From Escherichia coli (GTDB lineage Bacteria; Pseudomonadota; Gammaproteobacteria; Enterobacterales; Enterobacteriaceae), in NCBI RefSeq assembly GCF_003991155.1, contig NZ_CP031293.1: a stretch of DNA of 64,000 nt. One strand, written 5' to 3'. Of this stretch, positions 3,361 to 60,711 are shown one piece after another; the first letter of the stretch is position 1; the number at the start of each line of letters is the position of its first letter. The position numbers and the translations under genes are program-made. The notes under the pieces are model-generated. The model did not search any database. It was given only the letters and a program-made list of their open reading frames with translations, and was not told where the DNA came from.

Positions 3361-3395
3361 ATCTACAATGTAGATTGATATATACTGTATCTACA
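3361..3395. promoter_or_regulatory. mazEF promoter/operator with overlapping (alternating) palindromes
   Basis: TCTACAATGTAGA palindrome at 3362-3374 and TGTAGAT/ATCTACA arms at 3369-3375 and 3389-3395 directly upstream of mazE. Confidence 0.6.
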
Positions 3396-18217: not shown

Positions 18218-19135
18218 TTATGAAGGGAGATCGTGTTGTCGGGGTAAGGCGGTCATCGCGCCTTTAGCCGTGGTCGCCAGAGCACCACAAATCTGAGCTT
18301 GTGCAATGATTCGTTCAAGCTGTCTGGTATTTGTTGGTATTCCAGAATCAGCCAGACCTGCAAGTAATCCAGCGACAAAAGCATCTCCTGCCCCGGTCGT
18401 ATCGACGACAGAAACAGGTTTGGCGGGATAGTGGATAAACTGCCCCTGAAAATACACAAGTACGCCATTTTTTCCTTGTGTAATAAGCAATAAAGTCAAC
18501 GAATAACGTTGTACTAATGAATATGCGCCTTGCTGAACCTGGCTTTCGCCACTGATGAATAGCAACTCTTCTTCGGACAATTTAGCGATATTCGCCAGCG
18601 AAAGTGCGCGATCAAGGTATTTCCTTAATAGCGCTTCACTCTGCCAGAGATCGCTGCGGATATTGGGATCAAAACTGATGTTTCCGCCAGCCTGACGTAT
18701 TTTCTCCATAGCCAGAAATGCGGTACTTCGGGAAGGTTCTGCACTGAGCGCAATGGAACAAAGATGGAGCCATTCACCCGGCCCAAATGCAGGAAGGTCA
18801 CCAGGTTGTAAAAAAAGATCGGCACTTGGGCGTACCATAAAGGTAAAGTTTCTTTCTCCTTGCTCATCAAGTCCTACAGCCACAATTGAGGTGCGTTGTT
18901 GAGGATCAAGAGACATATAACGTGTATCAACATTTTCTGTACTCAGTGTCTGATACATAAAGCGACCGAAAGGATCATCGCCAACTTTGCCAATAAAGGC
19001 ACTTTTCCCCCCCAGCCTTGCGATACCGACTGCAACATTAGCAGGCGCCCCGCCAGGACACTGTAGTAGTCTCCCCTGGCTTTCGGGTAATAAATCAACA
19101 ACCGCATCACCGAGTACCCATACTCTTGCGCTCAT
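18218..19135 (-). CDS. scrK: fructokinase (PfkB family)
   Basis: 305 aa; PfkB/ribokinase motifs (DTTGAGDAF); first gene of scr cluster; RBS GGAG. Confidence 0.9.
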   Translation of the reverse strand: MSARVWVLGDAVVDLLPESQGRLLQCPGGAPANVAVGIARLGGKSAFIGKVGDDPFGRFMYQTLSTENVDTRYMSLDPQQRTSIVAVGLDEQGERNFTFMVRPSADLFLQPGDLPAFGPGEWLHLCSIALSAEPSRSTAFLAMEKIRQAGGNISFDPNIRSDLWQSEALLRKYLDRALSLANIAKLSEEELLFISGESQVQQGAYSLVQRYSLTLLLITQGKNGVLVYFQGQFIHYPAKPVSVVDTTGAGDAFVAGLLAGLADSGIPTNTRQLERIIAQAQICGALATTAKGAMTALPRQHDLPS

Positions 19136-50440: not shown

Positions 50441-53002
50441 TTACACCAGACTCTTCAAGCGATAAATCCACTCCAGCGCCTGACGCGGAGTCAGTGAATC
50501 CGGGTCGAGGTTTTCCAGTGCCTCGACCGCAGGCGAAGTTTCTTCCGGTAGGGACAGCAAAGACATTTGTGTACCATCCACTTGCGTAGCAGCGGCGTTC
50601 GGCGAAATGCTTTCCAGCTCACGCAGTTTTTGCCGTGCGCGCTTAATAACCTCTTTTGGCACGCCCGCCAGAGCAGCAACCGCCAGGCCGTAGCTTTTGC
50701 TCGCCGCGCCATCCTGCACGCTGTGCATAAAGGCAATGGTGTCGCCGTGCTCCAGCGCATCGAGATGCACGTTGGCGACGCCTTCCATTTTCTCCGGCAG
50801 TTGGGTCAGCTCGAAATAGTGGGTAGCAAACAGCGTCAACGCTTTGATCTTATTTGCCAGATTTTCCGCGCATGCCCACGCCAGCGACAGACCATCGTAA
50901 GTGGAAGTTCCGCGCCCAATCTCATCCATCAGCACCAGACTGTACTCGGTGGCGTTATGTAAAATATTGGCGGTTTCGGTCATCTCCACCATAAAGGTTG
51001 AACGCCCGGATGCCAGATCGTCTGCCGCGCCTACGCGGGTAAAGATACGGTCGATCGGGCCAATCTCGACTTTTTGCGCCGGTACGTAGCTGCCGATATA
51101 CGCCATCAGCGCAATCAACGCGGTCTGGCGCATATAGGTACTTTTACCGCCCATGTTCGGACCGGTAATGATCAACATGCGGCGCTGCGGCGACAGGTTC
51201 AGCGGGTTAGCGATAAACGGCTCATTCAGTACTTGTTCAACTACCGGATGGCGACCTTCGGTAATGCGAATACCCGGTTTATCAATAAAGGTCGGGCAGG
51301 TGTAGTTCAGGGTATAGGCCCGTTCCGCCAGGTTCACCAGCACGTCGAGTTCCGCCAGCGCGCTCGCGCTCTGTTGCAACGCTTCCAGATGCGGCAACAG
51401 CAGGTCGAACAGCTCTTCATAAAGTTGTTTTTCCAGAGCCAGTGCTTTGCCTTTTGAGGTGAGAACTTTATCTTCGTACTCTTTCAGCTCCGGAATAATG
51501 TAACGCTCGGCGTTTTTCAGCGTCTGGCGGCGCATGTAGTTAATCGGTGCCAGATGGCTTTGCCCACGGCTGATCTGAATGTAGTAGCCGTGCACTGCAT
51601 TAAAGCCAACTTTCAGCGTGTCCAGGCCGGTACGTTCACGCTCGCGGACCTCCAGACGCTCCAGATAATCGGTCGCACCGTCAGCCAGCGCGCGCCACTC
51701 ATCCAGCTCTTCGTTATAGCCCGATGCGATAACACCACCGTCGCGTACCAGCACCGGTGGTGTGTCGATGATTGCTCGCTCCAGCAGATCGCGCAGCTCG
51801 GCAAACTCGCCCATCTTCTCACGCAGCGCTTGTACCGGTGCACTATCGACATTTTCTAACTGCGCACGCAACTCCGGCAGTTGCTGGAAAGCGTGGCGCA
51901 TACGGGCCAGATCGCGCGGGCGAGCAGTACGTAACGCCAGACGCGCCAGAATACGTTCCAGGTCGCCCACCTGACGCAGCACAGGCTGTATCTCGGCGGT
52001 GAAATCCTGCAATGCGCCAATAGTTTGCTGGCGCTCAAGCAACACGCGGGTATCGCGCACTGGCATATGCAGCCAGCGTTTCAGCATACGACTACCCATC
52101 GGCGTTACAGTGCAGTCGAGCACTGAAGCCAGCGTGTTTTCCGCACCGCCCGCCAGGTTCTGAGTAATTTCCAGGTTACGACGCGTCGCGGCATCCATAA
52201 TGATGCTGTCCTGCTCACGTTCCATGGTGATAGAACGAATATGCGGCAGGGTCGTGCGTTGGGTATCTTTCGCATACTGCAACAGACAACCGGCAGCACA
52301 AAGTCCGCGCGGCGCGTTCTCGACGCCAAAACCGACCAGATCGCGGGTGCCAAATTGCAGATTCAACTGCTGGCGCGCAGTGTCGATTTCAAACTCCCAC
52401 AGCGGACGACGACGCAGGCCGCGACGACCTTCAATCAGCGACATCTCGGCGAAATCTTCTGCATACAACAGCTCTGCCGGGTTGGTACGTTGCAGCTCTG
52501 CAGCCATCGTTTCGCGGTCCGCCGGTTCGCTAAGGCGAAAACGCCCGGAGCTGATATCCAACGTCGCGTAGCCGAACCCTTTGCTGTCCTGCCAGATAGC
52601 TGCCAGCAGGTTATCCTGACGCTCCTGCAACAGCGCTTCATCGCTGATGGTGCCCGGCGTAACGATACGGACAACTTTGCGCTCGACCGGCCCTTTGCTG
52701 GTCGCCGGATCGCCAATTTGTTCGCAGATGGCAACGGACTCGCCCTGATTCACCAGTTTGGCGAGATAGTTTTCCACCGCATGGTAGGGGATCCCCGCCA
52801 TCGGGATCGGCTCTCCCGCGGAAGCACCGCGTTTGGTCAGTGAAATATCCAGCAGCTGCGAGGCGCGTTTCGCGTCGTCATAAAACAGTTCGTAAAAGTC
52901 ACCCATCCGATAGAACAGCAGGATCTCGGGATGCTGGGCTTTCAGCTTGAGATACTGCTGCATCATTGGCGTATGGGCATCAAAATTTTCTATTGCACTC
53001 AT
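50441..53002 (-). CDS. mutS: DNA mismatch repair protein MutS
   Basis: 853 aa; Walker [10 protein letters not shown]; canonical MutS sequence. Confidence 0.97.
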
Positions 53003-53248
53003 GGAGTTATGTCCGGTTCCCTGATATTAAATGGGGTGTGATGGTTTTTATTTTCGTTGTAATCACATAAGGCGCACATGATACCGGAGTTAATCATTTC
53101 AGGGGAAGAAGCGAACGGCGAGTTCTTGATGGTGATTCCGGGAAAGATGCTGTTTTGCAGCTTTTGCGTGATGCTTATGAAGCAAGTACGCAAAATTGCG
53201 TCGGTTGAATAAACCTCCTCCTTCAGAGCCATAGTCCCCTTTCAAATT

Positions 53249-53271
53249 AAGTTGTAATATAAATACACCTT
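53249..53271. promoter_or_regulatory. candidate NsrR operator in ygbA promoter
   Basis: AAGTTGTAATATAAATACACCTT resembles the AT-rich inverted-repeat NsrR motif as I recall it; ygbA is a reported NsrR target. Confidence 0.35.
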
Positions 53272-53288
53272 AAGAGTATGGAGGCAGC

Positions 53289-53633
53289 ATGTCCGGCAAG
53301 CGTATCTCTCGTGAAAAACTGACGATTAAAAAAATGATCGATCTTTATCAAGCGAAATGCCCGCAGGCGTCAGCGGAGCCGGAGCATTACGACGCGCTGT
53401 TTGCCTACGCGCAAAAGCGGCTGGATAAATGTGTGTTCGGCGAAGAGAAACCAGCCTGTAAGCAGTGTCCGGTGCACTGTTACCAGCCAGCAAAGCGTGA
53501 AGAGATGAAACAGATTATGCGTTGGGCCGGGCCGCGAATGCTGTGGCGTCATCCGATCTTAACCGTGCGTCATCTCATCGATGACAAGCGTCCGGTGCCG
53601 GAGTTGCCAGAAAAATATCGTCCAAAGAAATAA
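53289..53633 (+). CDS. ygbA: nitrous-oxide-stimulated promoter family protein YgbA
   Basis: 114 aa; Cys-rich (CPQ...CKQCPVHC). Confidence 0.85.
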   Translation: MSGKRISREKLTIKKMIDLYQAKCPQASAEPEHYDALFAYAQKRLDKCVFGEEKPACKQCPVHCYQPAKREEMKQIMRWAGPRMLWRHPILTVRHLIDDKRPVPELPEKYRPKK

Positions 53634-53671
53634 ATCTGCCGGAGAGCCATACTCTCCGGCAAATAAGGCGT

Positions 53672-54100
53672 TTACGCTTTGGTGGCAATCAGGATGGCTG
53701 ATGCTTTGATCAATGCAATAACGCGCGAGCCAGTGGTGAGTTTCATTTCATCCTGACTTTCATTTGTTACCACTGCCACAATTTCAAAACCCGCATCCGT
53801 TTTGATATGGACAGTGGCGTTCACTGCGCCTTCGGTGATTGTCGACACGCTGCCAGCAAACTGGTTGCGAGCAGAGAATTTCAGTCCACAGTCTTCCGTT
53901 GCCAGTGTTACCCACGGGGCTTTAATCAGGGCAATCGCTTCTTTCCCTTTTGCCAGACCAAGAGCCTGCTGGCTGCTGTGTGTAACAATTGCCACCAGCT
54001 TTGCACCACCTGCCAGCGTCAGTTCTACTTCATCATTCACAGCGCCCATTGCTACTGCGCTAACTGTTCCGGTTAATTGATTTCTTGCTGAAACTGCCAT
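53672..54100 (-). CDS. molybdenum-pterin-binding (Mop, di-TOBE) protein
   Basis: 142 aa from MAVSARNQLTG with RBS AGGAGG; two tandem TOBE repeats each beginning SARNQ(L/F)(T/A)G(T/S)VS. Confidence 0.75.
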   Translation of the reverse strand: MAVSARNQLTGTVSAVAMGAVNDEVELTLAGGAKLVAIVTHSSQQALGLAKGKEAIALIKAPWVTLATEDCGLKFSARNQFAGSVSTITEGAVNATVHIKTDAGFEIVAVVTNESQDEMKLTTGSRVIALIKASAILIATKA

Positions 54101-54144
54101 ACTGCCTCCTTTCATTGAATGTTGATCGAGTATAACCACATCTG

Positions 54145-56223
54145 TTAAATCAATGCCGATTTATCAATTCCCAGTCGCTTCATCCGTGACAGCAGGGTCG
54201 TGCGTTTCAGCCCCAGACGTTGCGCAGCGCCTTTAGGTCCGGCAACCACGCCGTTAGTTTCTTTCAGCACGCGAACAATCAACTGATATTCATCTTCGCC
54301 CTCCTGAGCGACAACCGTTGCGGCAGGCGGCGTTTCAGGTTCTGGTAAAGCAATATCTGGCAATGACAGCTGCAGCACGTTGCCGCGTGTTAGCAATACC
54401 GCGCGCTCAATGACGTTTTCCAGCTCACGCACGTTGCCCGGCCATTCCATGTTGCTCAGGATGCGCAGCGTCTCGGCAGGAATGCTGTCGATATTGCGCC
54501 CCAGACGACGGGCAATTTTGAAGGTAAAGGCTTTCGCCAGCAGCGGAATATCTTCCGGACGCTCGCGTAGTGGCGGCAGGTGGATCGGGAATACGTTCAG
54601 GCGGTAATAGAGATCGCTACGGAACTCTCGGTCGGCGACCATTTTTTTCAGATCGCGGTTAGTCGCGGCAATTAAACGTACGTCCGTCTGAATGATTTTG
54701 TTGCTGCCAAGACGTTCAAACTCCTGTTCCTGTAATACACGCAGCAACTTCGGCTGTAACTCCAGCGGCATATCGCCCACTTCATCGAGGAATAGTGAGC
54801 TTTTATCCGCCAGTTCAAAACGACCAATGCGCTGAGCGCTGGCACCGGTAAAAGCCCCACGCTCATGACCAAATAGATCGCTTTCCAGCAATCCGGCAGG
54901 CATCGCCGCGCAGTTCATTTTGACCATGCGGCGATTATTACGCCCACTGAGATTATGGATCGCGCGGGCAATCAGCTCTTTACCTGTACCAGTTTCACCG
55001 AGGATCAGCACGGTACTGTCACTTTGCGCCACCATTTCAACTTGTTTAAGTACGCTGTACATGGCTTCGCTGCGGCCAATAATCTCGCCAAATTCACTAT
55101 CAACATTGTTGAGCTGCTCGGTCAGGGCGAGGTTTTCATCAACCAGCCGTTCTTTCAGACGATGAATTTCCTGATAGGCGAGGGCGTTATCGACAGCGAT
55201 TGCCACACGTTCGGCAATCTGGCGCAGTAAGCTCAGATTGGTAGTGGTAAATACTTTCTCTTCGCATTGCGCCAGTTTCAGCACGCCCAGCATGGTGTCG
55301 CCAGACATCAGCGGTAACAGGCACAAGGTTTGAATCTGGTTGCCCCAGGTGTCGAACAACATGCGTTCATAGGGGGCTAAATCGTCCCGCTCGTGGAGAT
55401 TAATCAACAGCATCTCTTTACTTTTGAAGACGCGTTCGGTGAGGGTTCCGGCTTCATCGACTTCGCTCTGTTCGTGGGCGGGATGCTGTTTATCAAGATA
55501 GTGAGTGGAGTAGATGTTGAGTTTGTTTTTACGGTGGCTGCGTAAGACAATGCTGATATCGTCAATGTCGAAATAGTAATGGATTTCTTTGGCGACTTCG
55601 CTGACCAGTTCGTCCATATCCAGGCGGGAAAGCACCGCGTTGGTGATGGCGACCAGGATGCGGAAGTTATCGCGTTCCCGGCATAACAACTCATAGTCGA
55701 CATTGTTAACGACGCGGCTCTGGATTTGTTCGGTGACGACAGAAACGATCTGCGTAAATGTTTGCAGGCGATTGAACTCTTTTTCACTCCACGGGCGATC
55801 GTCATAACGAATAAATTCACAGCCACCAAAAATATGCCCTTCCGCCGCCAGTGGCATCAGGCAATAGTGACCAAATTTGGGGTATAGCCCACCTGCGGCC
55901 AGCTGCGGCCAGGTTTCACAAAATTCTTCGTAACTGCAATGCAGCGTATCAGGGCGCGACAAAATGCTGCGTACCGGACCGTGTGCCAGAACAGTTTCGT
56001 CTTCATATTTAATGGGGGTGTCTTTTTCACGCGACGCGTAATAAGACGCACGTTGAGTCTGCGCTTGCCACAACACAATAGCCGCGTTGTCGGCGAGCGC
56101 AGAACGCTTTACCAGTTGCGAAAGAGCCTCACACAGCGAGGCCAGATCGGGCTGCTGCAATAGTGTCCGAGTGATGTCGAACAACCCTTGTTGTCCGAGA
56201 TCACTCATCGGTGTATATGACAT
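54145..56223 (-). CDS. fhlA: formate hydrogenlyase transcriptional activator (sigma-54 dependent)
   Basis: 692 aa from MSYTPMSDLG; GAF domains, AAA+ sigma-54 activator (GETGTGKE, GAFTGA), C-terminal HTH. Confidence 0.95.
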   Translation of the reverse strand: MSYTPMSDLGQQGLFDITRTLLQQPDLASLCEALSQLVKRSALADNAAIVLWQAQTQRASYYASREKDTPIKYEDETVLAHGPVRSILSRPDTLHCSYEEFCETWPQLAAGGLYPKFGHYCLMPLAAEGHIFGGCEFIRYDDRPWSEKEFNRLQTFTQIVSVVTEQIQSRVVNNVDYELLCRERDNFRILVAITNAVLSRLDMDELVSEVAKEIHYYFDIDDISIVLRSHRKNKLNIYSTHYLDKQHPAHEQSEVDEAGTLTERVFKSKEMLLINLHERDDLAPYERMLFDTWGNQIQTLCLLPLMSGDTMLGVLKLAQCEEKVFTTTNLSLLRQIAERVAIAVDNALAYQEIHRLKERLVDENLALTEQLNNVDSEFGEIIGRSEAMYSVLKQVEMVAQSDSTVLILGETGTGKELIARAIHNLSGRNNRRMVKMNCAAMPAGLLESDLFGHERGAFTGASAQRIGRFELADKSSLFLDEVGDMPLELQPKLLRVLQEQEFERLGSNKIIQTDVRLIAATNRDLKKMVADREFRSDLYYRLNVFPIHLPPLRERPEDIPLLAKAFTFKIARRLGRNIDSIPAETLRILSNMEWPGNVRELENVIERAVLLTRGNVLQLSLPDIALPEPETPPAATVVAQEGEDEYQLIVRVLKETNGVVAGPKGAAQRLGLKRTTLLSRMKRLGIDKSALI

Positions 56224-60587: not shown

Positions 60588-60711
60588 GCTGAGGCTTTGC
60601 CCGTTTTGCAGGCGTTACGCCTGTTTGGGGATGGGCGTGTCGATGAGTGTCGAAAATGACATTTCATCGGCATGTTTTCGTCAAAAATGACAATCACCTG
60701 AGGAATGACTG

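Follow-up and report, generated by a model that had tools for sequence, protein, structure and literature searches.

A predicted NsrR operator overlapping the likely promoter of ygbA in Escherichia coli

The ygbA locus

Is the AT-rich inverted repeat that lies just in front of ygbA the operator through which NsrR controls this gene, and how would it do so? NsrR, an iron-sulfur protein of the Rrf2 family, is a repressor that senses NO. The question was addressed in a stretch of 64,000 nucleotides, hereafter the window, which is a part of the E. coli chromosome carrying rlmD-relA-mazEF, cys, rpoS-mutS-ygbA-fhlA, hyp and hyc genes. nsrR is absent from the window and NsrR is encoded elsewhere in the genome.

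ygbA (53289..53633, plus strand) codes for a protein of 114 amino acids and was identified by its open reading frame, RefSeq annotation and Pfam search. Its product matches PF11756 (YgbA_NO) with 140.1 bits against a gathering cut-off of 25 (E = 4e-41, profile positions 1-104 of 106). This region occurs with 100% identity in E. coli 2016C-3878 (NZ_CP029747.1), whose annotation includes mutS (minus strand), a 44-aa hypothetical ORF, ygbA (plus strand), a TOBE-domain gene and fhlA (both on the minus strand). The hypothetical ORF (53078..53212) is located between mutS and ygbA on the ygbA strand and codes for a putative protein, WP_000611937.1 in RefSeq, which gave no match in a Pfam search; the operator discussed below lies 37 nt past its stop codon. 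An Rfam scan of positions 52900..54200 (E <= 1) returned no RNA family, therefore this region offers no riboswitch or sRNA explanation.

The 3' end of ygbA lies within a variable segment. A 513-bp stretch (53631..54143) includes the ygbA stop codon, a terminator-like hairpin and a gene of 142-155 codons whose product has two TOBE domains of the molybdate-binding type. The G+C-rich hairpin (53634..53664, assigned to neither strand) has a 14-pair stem, separates the convergent ygbA and TOBE-domain genes and has its T-run called on the minus strand. In K-12 the whole segment is replaced by 47 unrelated bp, so that no TOBE-domain gene is found downstream of ygbA; the long form is present in about 1,888 of 5,426 complete E. 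coli genomes. Since the segment carries the stop codon of ygbA, YgbA ends with PKK (114 aa) here and with PKKPHE (117 aa) in K-12.

A high scoring predicted NsrR site in front of ygbA

A possible NsrR operator had been proposed upstream of ygbA in a sequence-only reading of this DNA. Direct re-reading of the window gave AAGTTGTAATATAAATACACCTT at 53249..53271, exactly the sequence and coordinates proposed. The distance to the ygbA start, put at about 17 nt in that reading, is exactly 17 nt (53272..53288), with the ATG at 53289. The AT-rich inverted repeat that it described is an imperfect 11-1-11 dyad, AAGTTGTAATA-T-AAATACACCTT, with 8 of 11 symmetric positions. Its left half-site AAGTTGTAATA (53249..53259, plus strand) matches the NsrR half-site consensus AAGATGCATTT in 7 of 11 positions, and the right one (53261..53271), which reads AAGGTGTATTT on the minus strand, in 9 of 11. 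The symmetry of the 23-mer is uninformative when taken alone, because 89 dyads of the 11-1-11 type with at least 8 symmetric positions were observed in the window against 76 expected. We therefore rejected it as evidence for an operator.

Scanning of the window was performed with a symmetrised NsrR position weight matrix (PWM) constructed from 25 sites of the 11-1-11 type published for E. coli CFT073 (Mehta et al., 2015, Table 4, PMC5320621). The ygbA entry was excluded, and the table supplying the training sites was itself PWM-selected. With this curated motif the ygbA 23-mer scored 20.45 bits and was the top match among about 64,000 positions of the window, its score being as high as those of ChIP-seq-bound sites. 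It also ranked first with a matrix derived only from ChIP-seq-positive sites (20.75 bits) and when the hycB site was additionally removed from that matrix (21.45 bits). In a leave-one-out ranking it would take about the seventh place among the 25 training sites, above 18 of them. A score of 20.45 bits has p = 5e-8 per position under an iid model, corresponding to 0.003 expected matches per window, and was reached anywhere in 6 of 300 simulated first-order-Markov sequences of 64 kb. The 23-mer falls within the 286-bp intergenic region between mutS and ygbA, upstream of a known NsrR target; a match this strong in such a location is not a chance event.

The second-best match (60654..60676, AAATGACATTTCATCGGCATGTT, 16.5 bits) lies between hycA and hycB, some 36 nt upstream of the latter, and has the same sequence as the hycB site corresponding to one of the strongest NsrR ChIP-seq peaks in CFT073, with a fold enrichment of 16.2 (PMC5320621). 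As this sequence is one of the training sites, its score and second place are circular and do not constitute an independent match. The other matches were judged to be due to chance: one at 18908..18930 (14.0 bits) is inside a kinase gene, another at 3371..3393 (12.5 bits) was regarded as an unrelated palindrome resembling the motif by accident, and all the remaining ones score 11.5 bits or less. The sequence at 3371..3393, TAGATTGATATATACTGTATCTA, is a near-perfect palindrome located between mazE and relA, in the mazEF promoter region.

Published evidence for NsrR control of ygbA

The sequence-only reading had also described ygbA as a reported NsrR target, and the literature agrees. As early as 2005, Rodionov et al. 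listed hmp, ytfE and ygbA as genes repressed by E. coli NsrR, quoting a personal communication. NsrR regulation of ygbA (Bodenmiller and Spiro, 2006) and occupancy of the K-12 ygbA promoter by NsrR in ChIP-chip (Partridge et al., 2009) were reported later, both as cited in PMC5320621. In a Salmonella Typhimurium nsrR mutant, ygbA mRNA is increased 31.8-fold (PMC2884951). In CFT073, ygbA is among the genes most induced by growth with nitrate, which generates NO, and this response was attributed to NO-mediated relief of repression by NsrR (PMC5320621). No NsrR ChIP-seq peak was found at ygbA in CFT073; its authors consider this a probable false negative (PMC5320621). NsrR-dependent repression (K-12 and Salmonella) and promoter occupancy (K-12) were described for orthologues of the gene studied here.

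The same study lists the ygbA NsrR site of CFT073 as AAGGTGCATTTATATTACAACTT (Mehta et al., 2015, Table 4, PMC5320621). Its reverse complement, AAGTTGTAATATAAATGCACCTT, differs from the 23-mer of the window in a single base, G instead of A at site position 17. The comparison supports the identification of the 23-mer with an NsrR operator that has already been published; as such, the finding is an ordinary one with nothing new in the feature itself.

Conservation of the site in Enterobacterales

To follow the site in other species, we searched one genome per species for the YgbA motif CKQCPVHCYQ, written as degenerate codons, and obtained 120 loci, 115 of them with ygbA and enough upstream DNA. 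The best PWM match within 200 nt upstream of ygbA scores 15 bits or more in 96 of the 115 loci, and 77 loci reach at least 18 bits. Matches of at least 11 bits were found in 106 loci, and in 97 of these the distance to the ygbA ATG is 12-24 nt. Elsewhere, sites scoring 18 bits or more are rare: about 1 Mb of ygbA loci contains 84 of them, including the 77 in front of ygbA. The mean information content is 1.37 bits per column within the 23-mer, while its flanks are unconserved (0.14 bits per column over the 70 nt upstream); the former value is inflated because the alignment was anchored on the best PWM match. This anchoring bias does not affect the constancy of the ATG distance or the background site count, which offset the inflation only partly. 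Along with the top PWM rank and the single-base difference from the CFT073 site, this conservation across Enterobacterales bears out the original proposal of an NsrR operator; match, rank, position and conservation are all direct results of this analysis.

The cross-genus consensus of the ygbA operator is AAnnTGTATTATnAATGCAnCTT (about 100 Enterobacterales species). Near-invariant bases are A1, A2, G6, C18, T22 and T23, plus ATGCA at positions 15-19. The left half departs from the NsrR consensus in a way that is itself kept across genera, with T7 in all 106 loci and A11 in 101 of 106, whereas position 17, the mirror of one of them, retains the consensus G.

Morganella loci (L056, L069, L118, L015) have no NsrR-like site directly upstream of ygbA. 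In two of these, L056 and L069, a site of 20-22 bits, AAGATGTAATTATTATGCATCTT, is located about 720-740 nt upstream of the gene. Such a position suggests that Morganella ygbA may be the second gene of an NsrR-controlled operon.

A putative promoter overlapping the operator

The conserved departures of the left half point to a second function. Operator positions 7 and 8 are T and A in all 106 loci, and position 12 is T in 105 of them. Of 91 hexamers at positions 7-12, 89 conform to TAnnAT and 65 read TATTAT, while Escherichia has TAATAT. This putative -10 hexamer (53255..53260, plus strand), placed inside the left half of the operator on the basis of conservation, matches TATAAT in four of six positions, including the key T, A and T. 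The only conserved bases further upstream form a weakly conserved yTG 17 nt before the hexamer, its third position being G in 76 of 91 loci. The 17-nt offset also gives the highest mean match to TTGACA in the 91 loci, 2.7 against 0.8-2.0 at other offsets. In the window the corresponding putative weak -35 hexamer, TAGTCC (53232..53237, plus strand), matches TTGACA in three of six positions and is separated from the -10 by a 17-nt spacer. Downstream of the operator, a Shine-Dalgarno sequence GGAGG (53280..53284, plus strand) lies 4 nt before the ATG within a conserved G-rich block.

A strict sigma-70 consensus scan of positions 52950..53750 found no promoter, and a search of the literature yielded no transcription start site for ygbA; the promoter model is therefore built on conservation. 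From it we infer a sigma-70 promoter with the -35 at 53232..53237, the -10 at 53255..53260 and a start near 53267, which would place the operator at about -19 to +5. The left half-site apparently stays fixed as TGTATTA(T) across genera because it doubles as the -10 hexamer.

The main alternative concerns the promoter-occlusion step only. NsrR might bind the site as proposed while the promoter is located further upstream, in which case the operator would lie in the leader of the mRNA and serve as a roadblock to RNA polymerase. The negative sigma-70 scan, the lack of a reported start site and the weak -35 with its three matches out of six are all compatible with such an arrangement. However, the 70 nt upstream show almost no conservation (0.14 bits per column) except for the yTG at exactly 17-nt spacing from TAnnnT, and no other conserved promoter elements are seen upstream of the site in the cross-species alignment. 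We regard the roadblock as unlikely.

Another possibility is that the block is nothing but the AT-rich core promoter of ygbA, conserved for promoter function alone, with the palindrome and the NsrR likeness being coincidental. The invariant TAnnnT inside the block and the chance frequency of dyads with 8 of 11 symmetric positions (89 against 76 expected) could be read in this way. This is nevertheless very improbable because the conserved bases are arranged symmetrically and span positions 15-23 too, far beyond any -10, where promoters are normally unconstrained; besides, the PWM was derived from independent ChIP-seq-bound sites and published genetics has shown ygbA expression to be NsrR-dependent.

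The NarL heptamer consensus is TACYYMT. Least probable of all is that the palindrome serves another regulator, such as the Rrf2 protein IscR, or NarL/NarP acting via TACACCT: the latter agrees with the NarL heptamer in six of seven positions and ygbA does respond to growth with nitrate, but this response is ascribed to NO-mediated NsrR derepression, and most genera read TGCATCT or TGCAACT instead, keeping the NsrR dyad and losing the NarL-like heptamer, which led us to reject the NarL reading of TACACCT.

Comparison with other NsrR operators

The 23-mer, read as an NsrR operator, can be compared with those of ytfE, hcp and hmp, which follow the consensus AAGATGCATTT-N-AAATGCATCTT. It shares with them the 23-bp dyad, AA/TT ends, ATG/CAT cores and location near the start of a gene related to NO stress. 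Scored by the same matrix, its 20.45 bits are close to the hmp operator (20.6), whereas hcp scores 25.8 and the near-perfect palindrome of ytfE reaches 30.8. The difference is in the left half, which reads TGTAATA in ygbA and TGCATTT in the canonical operators.

The structure of enterobacterial NsrR is described as unsolved (PMC10783083). Cluster-dependent DNA binding and the NO response are structurally established for Streptomyces NsrR: S. coelicolor [4Fe-4S]-NsrR on the hmpA1 operator serves as the structural model for an Rrf2 dimer on a 23-bp inverted repeat, the binding being cluster-dependent and NO-sensitive (PMC9338935, PMC5411485), in another organism and on an operator of other sequence than the ygbA site.

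Operator alleles in E. coli

The ygbA site is polymorphic within E. coli. The K-12 MG1655 allele (NC_000913.3), AAGATGTAATATAAATACATCTT, is also located 17 nt before the same ATG, differs from that of the window in the symmetric pair of positions 4 and 20 and scores 22.0 bits. The CFT073 and K-12 sites share the locus, the distance to the ygbA start and the 11-1-11 architecture with the window, and are identical to its 23-mer in 22 and 21 of 23 positions, respectively. The window has T4, A17 and C20, CFT073 has T4, G17 and C20, and K-12 has A4, A17 and T20. The A at position 17 in the right half-site of the window thus stands against the G of CFT073 and most genera, and of the three alleles that of the window scores lowest with the PWM. 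It is predicted to be bound by NsrR as well.

Among the six E. coli strains compared, only positions 4, 9, 17 and 20 vary, position 9 in a single strain. This strain, F9792, carries A9G, which turns the putative -10 TAATAT into TAGTAT and leaves the other operator bases unchanged. Citrobacter species have TAGAAT at the same place.

A 51-mer around the site of the window is found unchanged in 1,293 of 5,426 complete E. coli genomes, so this is a common allele; the K-12 51-mer is found in 2,108. We may speculate that alleles differing at positions 4, 17 and 20 or by A9G differ between lineages in NsrR occupancy and basal ygbA expression, which could explain why K-12 ygbA was ChIP-positive and CFT073 gave no ChIP-seq peak, although we consider this rather doubtful. 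As a by-product, the comparison provides a small catalogue of natural E. coli ygbA operator alleles which can be compared for NsrR affinity.

A model of ygbA control

Overall, the 23-mer is very probably the operator via which NsrR represses ygbA, most likely by promoter occlusion. In the proposed mechanism, a dimer of holo-NsrR would occupy the 11-1-11 inverted repeat. As the operator (about -19 to +5) overlaps the likely -10 in its left half, bound NsrR would keep RNA polymerase off the promoter. NO would nitrosylate the Fe-S cluster, causing NsrR to leave the DNA, and ygbA could then be transcribed as a short-leader mRNA.

The cross-genus consensus with the -10 signature embedded in it is mildly new, its left half-site being seemingly under a double constraint, as an NsrR half-site and as a -10 hexamer; the same holds for the small set of natural operator alleles. 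The finding is otherwise of annotation value: the site places ygbA of this strain in the NO-responsive NsrR regulon, like its orthologues in K-12, CFT073 and Salmonella.
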